Shown piece after piece: positions 4,658 through 48,922 of a stretch of 64,000 nucleotides of DNA. Source of the stretch: Candidatus Doudnabacteria bacterium (lineage in GTDB: Bacteria > Patescibacteriota > Doudnabacteria > UBA920); the NCBI GenBank assembly GCA_016218585.1, contig JACRDK010000006.1, forward strand, positions 1,823 to 65,822, written 5' to 3'. The notes under the pieces are model-generated. The model saw only the letters and a list, made by a program, of their open reading frames with translations, did no database searches and was not told the origin of the DNA. A program made the position numbers and the translations under genes. The first letter of the stretch is position 1. Every line of letters begins with the position of its first letter.

Positions 4658-4823
4658 ATGCGAATCTACAAATGCCTATTGAACTAAATCAGTAGCCATC
4701 CGTAGATCCGGATTTAATTTACAAATCTTGATCGGAAAATAATTCATCATTCACTTCCAGGCGACGTTAAACAAATTTCAAAAAAATTGTCGACCAAAAA
4801 GTGAACAAGAAAGGGTTTATACT

Positions 4824-5202: not shown

Positions 5203-5757
5203 ATGAACTTACTTGATATTATTATTCCAATTGCCCACGCAGCGGAAGAACCGGCTGTTAAAGAAGGCGGCGTTGCCGTTTTAGGCATTAATTTAAAACT
5301 TTTCATAGCCCAACTAGTAAACTTTGCGGTAGTTTTGGGAATTTTGTGGAAATTTGTTTTCACCCCGGTTGCTAAACAGCTTCAGGCCAGAACAGAAAAA
5401 ATTGAAAAAGCAATGGCCGATGCCACCACCACCGAAAAAGAAAAACAGGAATTTGCGGTTTGGAAACAACAAGAAATTGCTAAAGTAAAAACAGAAGCCG
5501 GCAGCATTATTAGCAGCGCTCAAGCGGATGCCGGAAAAGTTAAGGAAGATTTGCTTAAACAGGCTAAAGAAGAACAGCAAAAGTTAATTGAACAGGGTAA
5601 GAAACAGATTGAACAGGAAAAAGCCCAAGCCTTACAGGCGGCAAAATCTGAATTGGCAGACATTATTACCACAGCAACAGAGAAGATACTTAGGGAAAAG
5701 TTAACTGGCGATAAGGACCAAAAACTTATCAAGGATTCTCTTAAAGATATTAAATAA
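5203..5757 (+). CDS. atpF: F0F1 ATP synthase subunit b
   Basis: N-terminal TM helix plus long charged coiled-coil, operon position. Confidence 0.8.
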   Translation: MNLLDIIIPIAHAAEEPAVKEGGVAVLGINLKLFIAQLVNFAVVLGILWKFVFTPVAKQLQARTEKIEKAMADATTTEKEKQEFAVWKQQEIAKVKTEAGSIISSAQADAGKVKEDLLKQAKEEQQKLIEQGKKQIEQEKAQALQAAKSELADIITTATEKILREKLTGDKDQKLIKDSLKDIK

Positions 5758-25059: not shown

Positions 25060-25094
25060 AACAAAAATCCCTTTTAATTAAAAGGGATTTTGTT
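25060..25094. terminator. bidirectional terminator (perfect 15-bp stem aacaaaaatccctttt/aaaagggattttgtt)
   Basis: Long perfect hairpin with A/T-rich flanks. Confidence 0.55.
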
Positions 25095-43794: not shown

Positions 43795-45222
43795 CTAAAT
43801 ACTGATTTTTTTGCGAATTTTCTGCCCTTCGGCAGTGTCTTTAACCTCAAATCCCAGAGCTTCTATTTCTTTTCTTAATTCATCAGATTTAGCAAAATCT
43901 TTTGCTTCGCGCGCAGCCTGGCGGGCTTTTACCAAATTTGCCGCTGCTTCAGGCAATTCAATATTTTCCAAAATGCTTGGCGGGTTAATTAAACCTAGCC
44001 CTAATACTTCATCAAACTTTTTTGCTATTTCATCTTGAGTTCGTAAATTTGCAGCCAAATGGCCAAAAGATTCCCACAGCGCAGCCACAAAAGCAGGAAT
44101 ATTCATATCATCATCCAAAGCTTGTTTTGCCATAGCCAAATATTCTTTCAAAATATCCGCTTGTTCGGGTTGGTTTTCGCCAATAATTTTATGAGATGCA
44201 AGGGTATTAAATAATTTCTCCACGGCCTTGTAAGCGCCCAAAAAACTCTCCCAGGTAAAATTTTGCCTCATGCGATAGCTGCTCTGAGTAAACAAATAAC
44301 GCAAAGCCTCTCCGGGCAAAGGAACTTTTTCCGCCATATCAGAAAGCTGCAGGAACTTGCCGTCGCGCTTGGCCATTTTTTTGTCATCCACCATTAAATG
44401 TTCGCAGTGGCACCAGTGTTTAACAAAATTTCCTTTTCCCAGCAGGGCCTGGCTTTGGGCAATTTCATTTGTATGATGCGGAAAAATTAAGTCCACGCCG
44501 CCGGTATGGATATCGGTTACTTCGCCTGAAAAAGCCACGCGGTTTATTACCGAGCATTCAATATGCCAGCCGGGTCGGCCTTTGCCTAAAAGGGGATGGT
44601 CCCAAAAAATTTGCGCGTCACTTTCGGAATTATGCGCTTTCCACAAGGCGAAGTCGGACAGGTTATCTTTTTCATATTCGTCTACGGCCACGCGCGCGCC
44701 AACTTTTTTCCCTTCCAAAAACTTTTCTCCGACAAGTTCGCCGTAATCGTTAAAATCTTTTTGATATTTTTCAATGCTAAAATAAACGCTTCCATCTTCA
44801 GCTTTGTAAGCGTAGCCTTTATTTATTAACTCAACAATAAATTCCTGAATCTGAGGGATTACATCGGTCACCCGGACAAAAGTAATGTCTTCCACCGAGA
44901 CTTTTACTTTATGCAAGTCTTTTAAAAACTCATCGTAATAAAATTTCGTAAATTCGCGAAGATTTTCCACATTGGCCTGAGCGCCGTATTTTTCTACCGT
45001 GCCTTTTATAGTTTTATCATCAATGTCGGTAATATTCATAACCCATTTTGGGTTAAACCCTTCGTGCTTAAGCGAACGAAAAAGCAAATCTGCCACTATA
45101 TATGAGCGCAAGTTTCCAATATGGGCATAATTGTATACTGTTGGCCCGCAGGTATACACATTTAAATGGTCTTTTTTTGGAACTTCTTCAAGTTGTTTGG
45201 AAAGGGTATTATATAATTTCAT
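43795..45222 (-). CDS. cysS: cysteine-tRNA ligase
   Basis: HIGN, zinc-binding Cys pattern, KMAKR (KMSKS variant). Confidence 0.9.
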   Translation of the reverse strand: MKLYNTLSKQLEEVPKKDHLNVYTCGPTVYNYAHIGNLRSYIVADLLFRSLKHEGFNPKWVMNITDIDDKTIKGTVEKYGAQANVENLREFTKFYYDEFLKDLHKVKVSVEDITFVRVTDVIPQIQEFIVELINKGYAYKAEDGSVYFSIEKYQKDFNDYGELVGEKFLEGKKVGARVAVDEYEKDNLSDFALWKAHNSESDAQIFWDHPLLGKGRPGWHIECSVINRVAFSGEVTDIHTGGVDLIFPHHTNEIAQSQALLGKGNFVKHWCHCEHLMVDDKKMAKRDGKFLQLSDMAEKVPLPGEALRYLFTQSSYRMRQNFTWESFLGAYKAVEKLFNTLASHKIIGENQPEQADILKEYLAMAKQALDDDMNIPAFVAALWESFGHLAANLRTQDEIAKKFDEVLGLGLINPPSILENIELPEAAANLVKARQAAREAKDFAKSDELRKEIEALGFEVKDTAEGQKIRKKISI

Positions 45223-45268
45223 ATAACTAATTTTAGCATGAAAAAGAACAAACGGTCGAACATATACT

Positions 45269-45304
45269 CATTCCGCTCATTCACGGCCGTGAATGAGCGG
45301 AATG
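45269..45304. repeat. perfect 36-bp palindrome cattccgctcattcacgg|ccgtgaatgagcggaatg
   Basis: Shares 22-bp core ctcattcacggccgtgaatgag with 45860-45893. Abuts the stop codon of the PaaX-like gene. Confidence 0.6.
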
Positions 45305-45826
45305 TTATAAATTAAACATCTTTCTAAGGTCTTTATCGTTATCCATCTCTTCAACCTTTATAATTCTTATAAAATTAATTAGCTTTGTCTCAGTTAAATA
45401 TTGTATTGCATCCCTGTTTAAGGGGTAAGGACTAATGAAAACACTAGCCTGAAGCTTTTTAAAATTGTTTTTCTTAAGCATCCAACGAAAATGATCCCGT
45501 AAATGATGGAAGCTTTCCGGGATGTCAAAAATAATGACCCTCCACTTCCCATCCCAATTTTTTGCAACATCTAGCCCTGCTTTTTGCAGCAATTTTTCCA
45601 ATTGCCCCTTGTTGGTAATTTTTAAAAACTTCTGGTCATTTTTTTTAATAATTTTTAAATACCCCGAACGGTTCATTTTCCACAGCGCATTAGTGTATTT
45701 GTCCCTGGTAAAACCTCTAAGGTTTTTCCTCTTTGCGAAATCATACAAACTTTCCAACGGCAAAAACGGAGTGTCAAGATCCAGACACTCGAGAACCAAA
45801 TGAACAAAAGGCCCATAACGATTCAT
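45305..45826 (-). CDS. PaaX-family-like transcriptional regulator (short form)
   Basis: WDGKWRVIIFDIPESFHHLRDHFRWMLKKNNFKKLQASVFISPY matches the PaaX C-terminal signature (WDG.W...F..PE...R...R..L...GF..L...VW..P). Confidence 0.55.
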   Translation of the reverse strand: MNRYGPFVHLVLECLDLDTPFLPLESLYDFAKRKNLRGFTRDKYTNALWKMNRSGYLKIIKKNDQKFLKITNKGQLEKLLQKAGLDVAKNWDGKWRVIIFDIPESFHHLRDHFRWMLKKNNFKKLQASVFISPYPLNRDAIQYLTETKLINFIRIIKVEEMDNDKDLRKMFNL

Positions 45827-45859
45827 ATAAATTGACTGTCGCTTTTATTTAAAAATTAA

Positions 45860-45893
45860 ATTCACCTCATTCACGGCCGTGAATGAGGTGAAT
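45860..45893. repeat. perfect 34-bp palindrome attcacctcattcacgg|ccgtgaatgaggtgaat
   Basis: Second copy of the cattcacggccgtgaatg core, between the CPA2 gene stop and the PaaX-like gene. Confidence 0.6.
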
Positions 45894-45894
45894 G

Positions 45895-47607
45895 TTAGCT
45901 ATTTGAAATCATTCCTAAATGATGTTCGCGGAGTTTTTTTAACCCGGTTGATAATTCCCGGCCTTCTAAAATTTTTGCTAAGTGCAAGCCGCCCATAAAA
46001 TGCGGTGAGATTACGTAGTCTATGCCATGCTCGTACAAAATTTTTGTTTCCGCTTCATCCTGGGCAATAAAAATTAACTTCGGGTGATTGCGCTTGCCGG
46101 CTGTGGCGGCTTTGATGGAATGAATCAGCGACAGGTTATCGTTAAAATCCGGGACAGTGGAAATAATTAATTTAGCAAACGGCAAATTAACTTGCTCTTG
46201 AATAAAGCCGTCGGTAATATCGCCGCAAACAGCCAAGTGTCCCAGTTCAATATAATGTTCAACCACCTCCGGATTAAAGTCTACTATAACAAACGGAGTT
46301 TTATGTTTTTTTAATGCGTCAATTAAATGATGCCCAAGCCTATGCGCGCCCACCAGGATAATATGGTTTTTAAGGACCGCAGTGCTAACATGCTTTTCGG
46401 CCGAGCCTTTGCGGAAATCAAAATATTTAAAAACAAATTTTAGCTTTTCAAAAATTTGCGTAGCGTACATTATCATATACGAGGAAAGGCCAATTGTGAC
46501 AATGGCAATTAAAGTCATTAAAGCCACGTCCTGTTTTTGCAAATGCCCCAGCTGATAGCCGGAAGTTACTAAAATTAAACTGAATTCAGAAACCTGGGCC
46601 ACAGTTACGCCAGCCAAAAATCCGGTGCGGGGCTTATAACCGGCCAATCCGAGCAAGACCATAACAATTAACGGGTTGCCAATTAGAACAAACAACGACA
46701 GCCAAATTGCCGGACCGGTTAAGGCTGATAAATTATCGAGCATTAAGCCCGAACCAAGCACGATAAAAAATAAAATTATAAAAAAGTCGCGAATGGGTTT
46801 TATTTTGCCGCTAATTTCATAATGAACGCCGCTTCTGGCCAAAGACAGTCCGGCTAAAAACCCGCCAATCTCCAAACTGAAACCGACAATTGGCAGAGAC
46901 ACAAAGCTGGCAAGGCCTAAAGCCCAAGCCAAAGAGAAAACCAGCATTAGTTCGTCGTTATTGCCAATGTGCTGCAAAATTTTGGGGAAAACTTTGGCTG
47001 ACAGCCACCAGACAACCAACACTAAAATTAAGCCTCTAACCAAAGCCATAATTACGGTCTGCCATAACGGCAAGTTGGAATAAAAGCCCGAACTGCTGGA
47101 ACCCATGCTGGACAGAGCAATTAAAATTAAAATCGCAACAAAATCCTGAGTCAAAAAAATTCCAATAACCAGCTTGCCATACAAACTTTGCATATCTTTC
47201 TTCTCGCCCAAAAGTTTAACCACAATAATCGTAGAAGAAAAAGTCAGCGCCGGAGCAAGATACAAAGAGGGGATGGTGCCAAGGCCGAGCAGGCGCAAAA
47301 TTAAATAGCCAATTCCGGTAGTAAAAACAATTTGCCCCAACGCAACAAACAGCACGGTTTTGCCCAGGCGCCGGAGCTGCGCCACGTCCAGTTGCAGGCC
47401 GACCATAAACAAAAGCAGGGTAATACCTATTTCCGCCAAAGCCGAAAACACATCGCCTTGCTGCAGGCGATAATATCCCAAAGGCCCGACAACAACGCCG
47501 GTTAAAATGTAAGCAATTATGCTGGGTTGTTTAAGCAGGCTCACCAAAAAAGACACCAAGCCTGCCAAAATCAAAACCGTGGTTAGTTCAAAAAATAAAT
47601 TATTCAC
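45895..47607 (-). CDS. monovalent cation:proton antiporter-2 (CPA2, KefB-like) with C-terminal RCK/TrkA-N domain
   Basis: ~12 TM helices, then Rossmann ILVGAHRLGHHLIDALK and a second RCK segment. Confidence 0.8.
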   Translation of the reverse strand: MNNLFFELTTVLILAGLVSFLVSLLKQPSIIAYILTGVVVGPLGYYRLQQGDVFSALAEIGITLLLFMVGLQLDVAQLRRLGKTVLFVALGQIVFTTGIGYLILRLLGLGTIPSLYLAPALTFSSTIIVVKLLGEKKDMQSLYGKLVIGIFLTQDFVAILILIALSSMGSSSSGFYSNLPLWQTVIMALVRGLILVLVVWWLSAKVFPKILQHIGNNDELMLVFSLAWALGLASFVSLPIVGFSLEIGGFLAGLSLARSGVHYEISGKIKPIRDFFIILFFIVLGSGLMLDNLSALTGPAIWLSLFVLIGNPLIVMVLLGLAGYKPRTGFLAGVTVAQVSEFSLILVTSGYQLGHLQKQDVALMTLIAIVTIGLSSYMIMYATQIFEKLKFVFKYFDFRKGSAEKHVSTAVLKNHIILVGAHRLGHHLIDALKKHKTPFVIVDFNPEVVEHYIELGHLAVCGDITDGFIQEQVNLPFAKLIISTVPDFNDNLSLIHSIKAATAGKRNHPKLIFIAQDEAETKILYEHGIDYVISPHFMGGLHLAKILEGRELSTGLKKLREHHLGMISNS

Positions 47608-47742: not shown

Positions 47743-48321
47743 ATGGAACTAAATACCATATTTTTTATAGGTCCGCAGGGAAGCGGCAAAGGAACCCAAG
47801 CCAGAAGACTGGCCGAACGTTTAAAATTCTTTTACTGGGAAATGGGCGGAATTTTAAGGGAAATTGCCAAAACCGATACCCCATTGGGCAATAAAGTTAA
47901 AGCCCTGATTGATTCCGGCACTCTGCTTTCCGACCAGGATTTATACGAAGTTGTAAAAGCAAGGCTAAAACAACTGCCAAAAAGCCAGGGTGTAATTTTT
48001 GACGGAATTCCGCGCCGCCTGGGCCAGGCAGAATTTTTATTTAACTACTTGGTAGGCCAGGGCAGAAAAAACTTCTCGACTTTGTTTGTAAATTTGCCTA
48101 AGCAGGAATCTGTAAACCGGTTAATGCTCAGGGCGGAAAAAGAAAAACGCGCGGACGATACATTGGAAAAAATTGAATTCCGCCTCAAACAATATGAAGC
48201 CGATACTGTGCCGGTCTTAGATTATTTAAAAGACAGAACCAGTTTTTTTGAAATTGACGGAACGCCCGACATTGATACTGTGAGCCAAAATATAAATAAG
48301 GCATTAGGACTAAATGACTAA
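47743..48321 (+). CDS. adk: adenylate kinase
   Basis: P-loop GPQGSGKGTQ, FDGIPRRL, 192 aa. Confidence 0.8.
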   Translation: MELNTIFFIGPQGSGKGTQARRLAERLKFFYWEMGGILREIAKTDTPLGNKVKALIDSGTLLSDQDLYEVVKARLKQLPKSQGVIFDGIPRRLGQAEFLFNYLVGQGRKNFSTLFVNLPKQESVNRLMLRAEKEKRADDTLEKIEFRLKQYEADTVPVLDYLKDRTSFFEIDGTPDIDTVSQNINKALGLND

Positions 48322-48922
48322 ACAACCACTTAACATAATTCTCTTGGGCGATCCGGCCAGCGGCAAAGCAACGCACGGGGCTTTTATTGCGAAAAAATAC
48401 AAAATGTACGACCTTGATATGGGGCGCGAACTGCGCTCCATTTCTAAAAATCCGGTTTTGCGCAAAAAATACCGCCTGGACGAAACTTTGGAAAAAGGAA
48501 AACTCACGCCGACAAAAATTGTCAGGCAAATTTTGCAGGACAGCATTGCCGCAGTGCCAAAAAGCCAGGGGCTATTATTGAATGGCACGCCAAAAATGAT
48601 TGGCGAAGCCAAACTGGTTACCAAGTGGCTCAAACAACAAAAGCGCGAGAGAACAATTTTTATTTATTTGTCCATTCCGCTCAAGGAAACTATTTTGCGC
48701 ATGACCGGCCGCAAAGAATACTTTAAAGGCAAGTTCTCCAAGCGCCCTGACGACAACAATAAAGCTTTAAAAAACCGCATTGCTTATTACCAAAAAAACA
48801 TTGCCGAGGTAGTTACCTATTTTAGAAAGCTTTATCCTTATACAAAAATTTCTACCATCGGCACCGTAAGCGAAGCCAAAAACCGCTTGCTGACAATATT
48901 AAAAAAGTACGAGAACATTTAA
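48314..48922 (+). CDS. adenylate kinase-like paralog (divergent)
   Basis: P-loop GDPASGKATH, LLNGTPK (equivalent of DGFPR), similar length. Overlaps adk by 8 nt. Confidence 0.6.
   Translation: MTKQPLNIILLGDPASGKATHGAFIAKKYKMYDLDMGRELRSISKNPVLRKKYRLDETLEKGKLTPTKIVRQILQDSIAAVPKSQGLLLNGTPKMIGEAKLVTKWLKQQKRERTIFIYLSIPLKETILRMTGRKEYFKGKFSKRPDDNNKALKNRIAYYQKNIAEVVTYFRKLYPYTKISTIGTVSEAKNRLLTILKKYENI

Follow-up and report, generated by a model that had tools for sequence, protein, structure and literature searches.

Paired perfect palindromes bracketing a minimal PaaX-type gene in Patescibacteria as candidate cognate operators

Introduction

Why should a short regulator-like gene be enclosed, exactly at its two ends, by perfect palindromes, and how are these palindromes related to the protein encoded between them? 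The question is raised by a locus in a 64,000-nucleotide stretch of DNA from a Candidatus Doudnabacteria bacterium (contig JACRDK010000006.1); the whole stretch is called the window here and its numbering is used below. The gene encodes a 173-residue protein, referred to as mini-PaaX, and is bracketed by palindromes of 36 and 34 bp. A sequence-only reading of the window had taken the protein for a PaaX-like winged-helix regulator and the palindromes for its autoregulation sites. That reading did not touch on the generality of the arrangement, on the compensated symmetry of the arms or on the Cas2-type FDIPE motif that the protein keeps. The bracket is now found to recur in most sampled relatives of the gene across Patescibacteria, a group with few recognisable regulators and almost no experimentally defined cis-elements. 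The reading that we favour, with somewhat better than even confidence, is that the palindromes are cognate sites of the PaaX-type protein encoded between them and that the upstream site is autoregulatory. Within the papers that could be searched, none was found that combines PaaX with Cas2 or describes PaaX in the candidate phyla radiation. Paired perfect palindromes around a minimal, presumably autoregulated PaaX-type gene are an arrangement that is widespread in Patescibacteria and of which no description was found in the searchable papers.

Results

Two perfect palindromes enclose the mini-PaaX gene

The mini-PaaX gene occupies positions 45305–45826 on the reverse strand. The downstream, 3'-end palindrome (45269–45304) adjoins its stop codon and is built from two 18-nt arms, CATTCCGCTCATTCACGG and CCGTGAATGAGCGGAATG, that are 100% complementary and meet with zero spacer. 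The upstream, promoter-side palindrome (45860–45893) has the same construction with 17-nt arms, ATTCACCTCATTCACGG and CCGTGAATGAGGTGAAT, and is located 1 nt past the stop codon of a CPA2-type antiporter gene and 33 nt ahead of the ATG of the 173-residue open reading frame (ORF). A 22-bp core, CTCATTCACGGCCGTGAATGAG, is common to both. The perfect twin palindromes and their placement around the gene, as described in the sequence-only reading, were thus borne out by the sequence itself, and a palindrome scan ranked the two as the longest zero-spacer palindromes of the window. The 18-bp core occurs exactly twice in the window with up to three mismatches allowed, where 0.02 occurrences are expected. 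The upstream palindrome contains four ATTCAC/GTGAAT boxes, an inner pair at 45869–45874 and 45880–45885 and an outer pair at 45860–45865 and 45888–45893. Two further TTCAC...GTGAA matches in the window fall within long ORFs and look like chance matches rather than additional sites.

Both palindromes are predicted to fold stably. The calculated RNA folding energies are −29.8 kcal/mol for the 36-bp copy and −23.3 kcal/mol for the 34-bp copy (z about −6 against shuffles), and the corresponding DNA values are −18.7 and −15.0 (z about −9 against shuffles). An Rfam search of the window at the gathering threshold returned four tRNAs only and no known RNA family at the palindromes. Another zero-spacer perfect palindrome, AAAATCCCTTTTAATTAAAAGGGATTTT, lies at 25064–25091; it has 14-nt arms and a TTAA centre, and its sequence is unrelated to the twin palindromes.

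The bracket follows the gene family across Patescibacteria

The occurrence of the bracket was followed through 93 non-redundant family loci collected from assemblies, GTDB genomes and JGI metagenomes. In the close subfamily, both flanks are present for 43 loci. At least a core palindrome is carried by 39 of these 43, and 18 have long palindromes on both sides; another 14 have a long copy at the 3' end together with a short core or nothing upstream, and only four have none. The long 3'-end copy is therefore found at 32 of the 43 loci, and it is at this end that long arms are most regular. The family loci add up to about 303 kb; of the perfect palindromes in them with arms of at least 12 nt, 58 lie within about 360 nt at the gene ends and four elsewhere, and two of the four are extra or displaced copies of the local type. 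The density of palindromes at the gene ends is about 120-fold above that of the flanks.

The centre of the palindromes is nearly always CGGCCG; it is CGATCG in a distant subfamily and GTAC, AGCT, CATG or TATA at isolated loci, and it is self-complementary in every case (GGCC, GATC, GTAC, AGCT, CATG). The arms differ between genomes, and even between two paralogues of one metagenome-assembled genome (MAG; L009 and L029), and match within a locus.

Both copies in the window lie directly after stop codons and are flagged as terminator-like by a simple scan, and in the family it is the 3' end that most often has a long copy. The palindromes could on these grounds be plain transcription terminators or 3'-end stabilisers of the CPA2 and mini-PaaX transcripts, with no specific tie to the protein. 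No other terminator lies between the antiporter gene, the mini-PaaX gene and cysS, the next gene downstream, and a canonical one stands there in a locus that lacks mini-PaaX (L211, see below). The tail of the upstream copy on the coding strand, TTAATTTTTA, is T-rich, so the earlier statement that the palindromes lack T-runs holds for the downstream copy, whose tail is AGTATATGTT, and fails for the upstream one. Across the family, however, the share of copies with a T-tract behind them is 12 of 53 downstream and 7 of 37 upstream, and the background is 14%. The other terminators of the window have loops and flanking A/T tracts, unlike the twin palindromes, which are loop-less and have a conserved self-complementary centre. 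The palindromes also show no tolerance of G·U pairs (see below), are concentrated about 120-fold at a single gene family and change with the paralogue. A generic terminator, the possibility that the sequence-only reading had weighed against its own proposal, was rejected as the sole explanation: there are only two core copies in 64 kb, the centre is conserved, the enrichment at the gene is strong and T-tracts are near background. We consider a terminator function without a link to the protein highly unlikely.

Mini-PaaX is a shortened relative of PaaX

The 173-residue protein matches the Pfam family PaaX_M (PF20803), the Cas2-like middle domain of PaaX, over residues 89–164 with 65.4 bits against a cut-off of 24. 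An AlphaFold (AF2) model built with 36 relatives as input (pLDDT 85) consists of an N-terminal winged helix (about residues 1–82), with secondary-structure elements in the order H-H-H-E-E-H, followed by a Cas2-like ferredoxin-fold domain (about residues 95–170) that carries an invariant FDIPE motif (D101). The best PDB match of the model in Foldseek is E. coli PaaX (8a39; E 4.5e-6, TM 0.56 on the query); other PaaX-like structures, winged-helix regulators and, more weakly, Cas2 come next. The recognition helix TNALWKMNRSGYL aligns with RTALFRLNKEGWL of PaaX, and the WDGKW motif is aligned as well. The profile match, the modelled winged helix and the closest structure agree in supporting the earlier assignment of the protein as a PaaX-like winged-helix regulator, and structure prediction, which the sequence-only reading had proposed as a check, places a DNA-binding fold at the N-terminus.

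The resemblance to PaaX has clear limits. The PaaX C-terminal domain (PaaX_C), the region to which phenylacetyl-CoA binding has been assigned (review PMC9493321), has no Pfam match in mini-PaaX, which ends at residue 173 compared with 316 in E. coli PaaX. The NCBIfam model for PaaX (TIGR02277) scores 35.9 bits, far below its cut-off of 264.55. The mini-PaaX family keeps the Cas2-type sequence IIFDIPE with an invariant aspartate, where PaaX has LLLSEGLD. The genes in the neighbourhood encode the CPA2 antiporter, CysS, DnaB, RecR and adenylate kinases, and no paa genes are nearby. Mini-PaaX thus has the fold and the PaaX_M domain of PaaX and lacks its full length, its C-terminal domain and its paa context.

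NCBI and JGI annotations often label family members as Cas2. The Cas2 profiles fall just below their cut-offs (PF09827, 22.7 versus 23.8; TIGR01573, 22.4 versus 24.5), and Cas2 chains of the PDB match at E values of 0.01–0.1. No CRISPR array is present in the window, no cas1 or other cas gene is found among the identified flanking genes, which have housekeeping roles, and Cas1 is absent among the called neighbours with recorded Pfam hits in related loci. PADLOC gave weak Cas2 matches only, and PHROGs gave nothing meaningful; with viral contigs also yielding no relatives (see below), an origin from phages or defence systems was rejected. By score and by context the protein is not a CRISPR Cas2, nor is it a RAYT, the transposase associated with repetitive extragenic palindromic (REP) sequences.

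The family is large, with 3306 clusters at 50% identity for E values up to 1e-10, and no relatives were found in the viral contigs searched. An identical protein is annotated in NCBI, from a Candidatus Doudnabacteria MAG. Among relatives, the N-terminal 60 residues or so are very variable and the Cas2-like half is highly conserved.

Each site is symmetric as DNA

The two copies of 25 loci were aligned on their dyads. Identity between the copies is 100% at positions 1–4 from the dyad, 76–92% at positions 5–10, 56–68% at positions 11–12 and again 76–92% at positions 13–17; it drops to about 50% at position 18 and to background further out. The similarity ends about 18 bp from the dyad, and the unit therefore comprises about 18 bp on either side. 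Each half of the site has two boxes, inner and outer, separated by about one turn of the helix. The outer box is locus-specific; the inner one (consensus CCGTGAA, beside CGGCCG) is conserved across loci. No recognition code between the N-terminal helix and the half-site was visible by eye. The notion that the conserved centre is read by the conserved Cas2-like domain is weakened by GATC, AGCT and TATA centres within the close subfamily (L159, L139 and L134).

Symmetry is kept where sequence is not. In 26 loci with twin copies, the copies differ at 67 positions, at each of which either copy is still Watson-Crick symmetric, and mismatches amount to 27 of 1704 pairs. In a formal count over 64 sites, 97.9% of pairs are standard, a percentage that is biased because the sites were chosen as palindromic; 435 cells are changed on both sides. 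The number of pair types and the near-absence of G·U are free of this bias: about 7 of the 1024 cells hold G·U, compared with 22 that hold other mismatches. The near-absence of G·U indicates that the symmetry acts on DNA, on both strands, and not on a single transcript.

This observation bears on whether recognition might take place at the RNA level. The Cas2-like domain, which is also RRM-like, could bind or cleave the transcribed hairpins and so process or stabilise the mini-PaaX message out of a polycistron running from CPA2 to cysS. Ribonuclease activity is established for Cas2 and VapD relatives, the Cas2 aspartate persists in the family, RNA folding predicts very stable hairpins, and the three genes are co-directional and closely spaced. 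RNA pairing would nevertheless allow G·U, which is no commoner than other mismatches, and an RNA loop has no need of the self-complementarity that the centre always shows; these two features led to the rejection of a hairpin acting only as RNA. In addition, short upstream copies with arms of 8–10 nt keep only the core, and if the promoter overlaps the upstream copy, that copy lies outside the gene's own mRNA. Recognition at the RNA level is accordingly judged very unlikely.

Promoter-like elements adjoin the upstream copies

In 24 of 37 loci a −10-like hexamer begins between +15 and +21 from the dyad, most often at +16/+17, on the side of the upstream copy that faces the gene; the rate at random positions is 20%. 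Beyond the downstream copies such hexamers are at background (13 of 53). An extended −10 (TGnTAnnnT) lies across the right-arm end at many loci, with the ATG 5–8 nt further on, which implies leaderless or nearly leaderless mRNAs. In L007, L131 and L134 the palindrome lies exactly between TTGACA and TATACT, and the inner half-site (TTCACG/TTGACG) coincides with the −35.

In the window, a candidate promoter of the mini-PaaX gene overlaps the upstream palindrome on the reverse strand (45855–45883). It was read by eye and is tentative, with a −35 of TTCACG (45883–45878), a 17-nt spacer and a −10 of TTTAAT (45860–45855); the promoter scan omitted this site, as its second hexamer has no A at position 2.

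A different promoter-like site precedes cysS (45230–45259, reverse strand). It begins 9 nt past the downstream palindrome and consists of TCGACC, 18 nt and TGcTAAAAT, with the ATG 7 nt after the −10; the dyad of the downstream palindrome is about 64 nt ahead of that ATG. The same TGnTAAAAT-N6/7-ATG arrangement is found in L003, L006, L001 and L211 (about 4750–4770), the last of which has no mini-PaaX. The cysS mRNA is thus probably leaderless, transcribed from an extended −10 promoter that is conserved in Doudnabacteria with and without mini-PaaX. That the downstream copy generally serves as the promoter of the next gene was rejected, as −10-like hexamers are at background there and the similarity of the copies stops at about 18 bp; L132, described below, is a clear exception.

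Presence of the gene and of the palindromes is linked in the CPA2–cysS slot

The upstream neighbour of mini-PaaX is a CPA2-type cation:proton antiporter with a TrkA_N domain (45895–47607, reverse strand), and the downstream neighbour is cysS, which encodes cysteinyl-tRNA synthetase (43795–45222, reverse strand). On the far side of the antiporter gene, tandem adenylate-kinase-family genes with an 8-nt overlap occupy 47743–48321 and 48314–48922 on the forward strand; the pair stands next to CPA2 in all related loci examined.

Three orthologues of 75–84% identity (L001, L003 and L006) keep the gene order as well as both palindromes. Together with the window they share an invariant core, TTCACGGCCGTGAA, and their outer arms vary between genomes with perfect compensation. 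The orthologous coding sequences run into the downstream palindrome and stop at the TGA of CCGTGAA, giving a tail of the form HS(x)HSRP (L001, 2688–2723; L003, 4373–4414; L006, 3453–3492). In the window, a TAA at 45305–45307 ends the protein just ahead of the palindrome, and the frame beyond it would read HSAHSRP and a stop. In a more distant orthologue, L009 (52% identical), both palindromes are perfect and 38 bp long, and the CGGCCG centre is all that they have in common with those of the window. The locus is also present in several MAGs with records titled "uncultured Candidatus Saccharibacteria" (L040/L003, CAZFQP01; L083/L001, CAYZEI01); their CPA2 proteins are 85% and their DnaB proteins 90–93% identical to those of the window, and the labels look unreliable.

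The mini-PaaX gene occupies the slot between CPA2 and cysS in the window and in L001, L003, L006, L128, L129, L132, L149, L009 and L130. Two palindrome copies are present in nine of the occupied slots, for which both sides were inspected; in L130 a long copy is seen only downstream. The copies range from 16-bp cores (L128) to imperfect copies with a common defect (L129 and L132). In L129 the two copies agree in an asymmetric centre, CGACCG. L132 has a direct repeat of 45 nt, comprising an imperfect palindrome, a −10 and an ATG, ahead of both mini-PaaX and cysS (about 700–750 and 1272–1316). The shared defect and the 45-nt repeat suggest that one site of a locus was copied to the other or that the two underwent gene conversion.

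The slot is without mini-PaaX in four other Doudnabacteria (L208–L211), whose CPA2 proteins are 54–65% identical, and the CGGCCG palindrome is present in none of them. In L211, CPA2 is followed by a canonical terminator (A-tract, hairpin, T-tract) exactly at the position of the cassette and then by cysS. The other three slots hold unrelated ORFans of 128–198 residues on the opposite strand; in L209 a different zero-spacer palindrome, with arms AAATTCACTACCCG and CGGGTAGTGAATTT, lies just after CPA2. The comparison of the CPA2–cysS adjacency in relatives, suggested by the sequence-only reading, therefore shows the mini-PaaX gene and the CGGCCG palindromes coming and going together. In a tree of CPA2, the loci with mini-PaaX form two clades with lineages lacking it between them. 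The N-terminal motif LDxDxPLLPxESxYDFxKRK is common to the proteins of both clades and suggests that they are orthologous. Ancestral presence followed by several losses fits this distribution, and repeated gain may also account for it. The palindromes may also mark the ends of a small inserted cassette, the other proposal of the sequence-only reading, in a slot whose position is otherwise stable.

Solitary copies and other bracketed genes

GTDB genomes were scanned for ATTCACGGCCGTGAAT, and the counts given here are from the matches listed. Outside Patescibacteria, nearly all of these are bare cores with arms of 8–11 nt, and a few are longer, such as one with arms of 25 nt in a Victivallales MAG. 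At least about 30 matches in Patescibacteria (Doudna-, Moran-, Kaiser-, Niyogi- and Parcubacteria) have perfect arms of 12–29 nt. Several of these bracket family genes; others are single and lie in very short gaps between unrelated genes, usually 0–16 nt after a stop codon. Half-sites are genome-specific (AAAATTCACGG, often GACCTRTAAAATTCACGG, in palsa_1336; CTCCRTTTATTCACGG in CAZGRD; CACTTMATTCACGG in CAZFQP), and solitary copies share the inner and outer boxes with other copies of the same genome. The neighbours of the solitary sites are unrelated (Ham1, CYTH, sugar transferase, methylase, PIN, UvrD, GNAT, CAP and Macro), and a common regulon theme was rejected.

The MAG palsa_1336 contains at least five core matches. 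Four of them are one 36–38-bp element, with arms GACCTRTAAAATTCACGG and CCGTGAATTTTAYAGGTC, on four contigs (L023, 7113–7148; L025, 691–728; L047, 5896–5931; L060, about 5707–5742); two of these are perfect, and the other two each have one defect. A second palindrome of different sequence is present in L047 as well, so that the gene for an M1 peptidase, which does not belong to the family, is bracketed. In the Moranbacteria locus L093 (JAZHDF010000010.1, 3091–7476), four long CGGCCG palindromes within 4.4 kb separate genes for an unknown 602-residue protein, a Fic protein, a Macro-domain protein, a HAD-like protein and an unknown 115-residue protein. Identical palindromes flank the HAD-like gene, again outside the family, and there is no family gene on the 7.7-kb contig. 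From its layout, L093 looks like an array of palindrome-bracketed accessory genes.

Such arrangements would be expected of a selfish module resembling REP/RAYT systems or a cassette, in which a protein with winged-helix and Cas2 folds acts as a nuclease or recombination factor on structure-forming palindromes. The bracketed mini-PaaX gene would then be the autonomous unit, bracketed cargo genes the non-autonomous units and solo palindromes the footprints, with units being homogenised, duplicated or moved. This explanation would account for a gene bracketed by two copies with further copies scattered in tight intergenic gaps (at least four in palsa_1336, on different contigs), for the bracketing of other genes in L093 (Fic, Macro and HAD) and L047 (M1 peptidase), and for a strict pairing constraint without a sequence constraint. 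The shared CGACCG defect of L129 and the repeat of L132 would reflect copy-paste or gene conversion, and the invariant Cas2-type aspartate, the patchy presence in the CPA2–cysS slot and the canonical terminator in the empty slot of L211 are also in line with it. On the other hand, the stable position in the slot and the shared N-terminal motif fit vertical descent with losses. Few copies are seen, two in the 64-kb window and a handful per genome, and the viral contigs searched yielded no family members. The protein belongs to neither the HUH nor the DDE enzymes and has no recombinase next to it, and target duplications or pairs of empty and filled sites were not identified. A Campbell-type crossover at the dyad between unlike sites was rejected, as each copy is internally symmetric even where the two differ. 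On this evidence a selfish module is unlikely.

Discussion

How might mini-PaaX and its bracket work together? In the reading that we favour, mini-PaaX would be a homodimeric PaaX-type repressor, cut down to a winged helix and a Cas2-fold dimerisation domain, that binds both palindromes. The variable winged helix would read the variable outer boxes (about positions 13–17), specifically for each protein, and the conserved inner core would be contacted near the dimer axis and double as the −35 in upstream copies. The upstream site would overlap the gene's own promoter, with the −35 and the spacer within the palindrome and the −10 at its gene-proximal edge, and its occupation would result in negative autoregulation, as for E. 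coli PaaX at Px. That the sites are for autoregulation, as the sequence-only reading had proposed, is supported indirectly by the roughly 120-fold coupling to the gene, by arms that change with the protein and yet are shared by the copies of a locus, by the −10-like hexamers at 24 of 37 upstream copies and by the analogy with PaaX.

As a second cognate site, the downstream palindrome would close the transcription unit, as a hairpin, a protein roadblock or both. This added role is plausible because no other terminator separates the co-directional, closely spaced CPA2, mini-PaaX and cysS genes and because L211 has a canonical terminator at that place, and it would account for long arms being found most regularly at the 3' end. 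Looping might further allow the two sites to act together, and for cysS, the gene that follows, the downstream site would also be the operator in some relatives. In E. coli it is well established that template switching during replication can "correct" quasi-palindromes, as a form of mutation. Such correction, or else selection for a hairpin or cruciform (or for a bidirectional terminator), could have produced the perfect symmetry at positions that are seemingly not read.

Several observations weigh against this account. Perfect symmetry at positions 8–12, which differ between the copies of a locus, is not needed by a simple operator, and 67 compensated differences were counted in 26 loci. The −35/−10 assignment in the window is weak, and L001, L003 and L006 place their best −10 elsewhere. 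The downstream copy is placed relative to the stop codon and not to a promoter, and the distance from its dyad to the cysS ATG further on varies in orthologues between about 27 and about 170 nt. Some solitary copies have nothing to repress at their position, which is between convergent genes or immediately behind a stop codon, and the M1 peptidase gene of L047 and the HAD-like gene of L093 are bracketed without being family members. Finally, the Cas2-type FDIPE aspartate, lost in E. coli PaaX, is retained, which hints at more than a scaffold role for the domain.

Three of these features go beyond a plain operator, namely the strict symmetry where copies differ, the second site at the stop codon and the retained aspartate. 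They leave a small room for a reading of the REP/RAYT or cassette kind. In one form of it, the protein with Cas2 fold and winged helix would recognise its own hairpin or cruciform repeats and act on them catalytically through the Cas2 aspartate, as a self-maintaining element. This appears distinctly unlikely. If it were true, palindrome-bracketed cassettes such as the Fic/Macro/HAD array of L093 would undergo gene conversion, duplication or movement, and the system would be a Cas2-family analogue of REP/RAYT, in which a Cas2 relative stands on its own with palindromic repeats cognate to it.

In practical terms the gain for the window is modest: the palindromes are real, specific and most likely autoregulatory. 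For the family, the gene's flanks reveal a probable DNA site, often twice, in most sampled members, which provides a protein-to-site data set for rules of recognition. Candidate pairs of orthogonal repressors and operators can be drawn from the same loci, which also give access to promoters and leaderless starts of uncultivated bacteria. A structural-DNA or insulating function, or an activity of the Cas2 family outside CRISPR, could come to light through the symmetry at unread positions, the 3' site, the Cas2 motif and the other bracketed genes.

Among known systems, REP/RAYT (TnpA-REP) has a similar layout, in that a gene stands between two palindromic copies and dispersed extragenic copies usually lie just after stop codons. 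Mini-PaaX, however, is not an HUH/Y1 transposase; its sites are low in the copy number seen and have no GTAG head, and they are perfect and loop-less, with a conserved centre and locus-specific arms, whereas REP sequences are imperfect. CRISPR Cas2, especially of type II-A, and VapD share with mini-PaaX the ferredoxin-like fold and the motif FD(I/M)P...R..(F)R...Q.SV(F/Y). Unlike CRISPR Cas2, mini-PaaX scores below the Cas2 cut-offs, is fused to a winged helix, and has no identified cas1 or cas neighbours and no array in the window.

The looping repressors DeoR, GalR and LacI use operators hundreds of bp apart, and Lrp/AsnC proteins are regulators with a winged helix-turn-helix and a ferredoxin fold. 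In a comparison from general knowledge, the two near-identical mini-PaaX sites, 570–600 bp apart and presumably bound by one oligomeric repressor, recall the former, and the combination of a winged helix-turn-helix with a beta-alpha-beta-beta-alpha-beta oligomerisation domain recalls the latter. In contrast to the looping repressors, the second mini-PaaX site lies where the gene of the regulator ends and not near a promoter.

A further comparison is with PaaX, the repressor of phenylacetate catabolism in E. coli and Pseudomonas (PDB 8a39). Mini-PaaX is half the size, is without the C-terminal domain and paa genes nearby, and keeps the FDIPE motif where PaaX has lost it; its sites are perfectly palindromic through spacer and centre and stand on both sides of the gene. 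The two proteins have in common a winged helix with a similar recognition helix, the WDGKW motif and a Cas2-like middle domain. The site bound by E. coli PaaX is TGATTC-N27-GAATCA, with a total length of 39 bp, and by steric hindrance PaaX represses the promoter of its own gene (PMC9493321). The upstream site of the window reads ATTCAC-N22-GTGAAT, which at the level of sequence comparison has a similar geometry, and the PaaX operator, a wide inverted repeat of 6-bp boxes, is at 39 bp close in width to the 34–38 bp of the palindromes described here.

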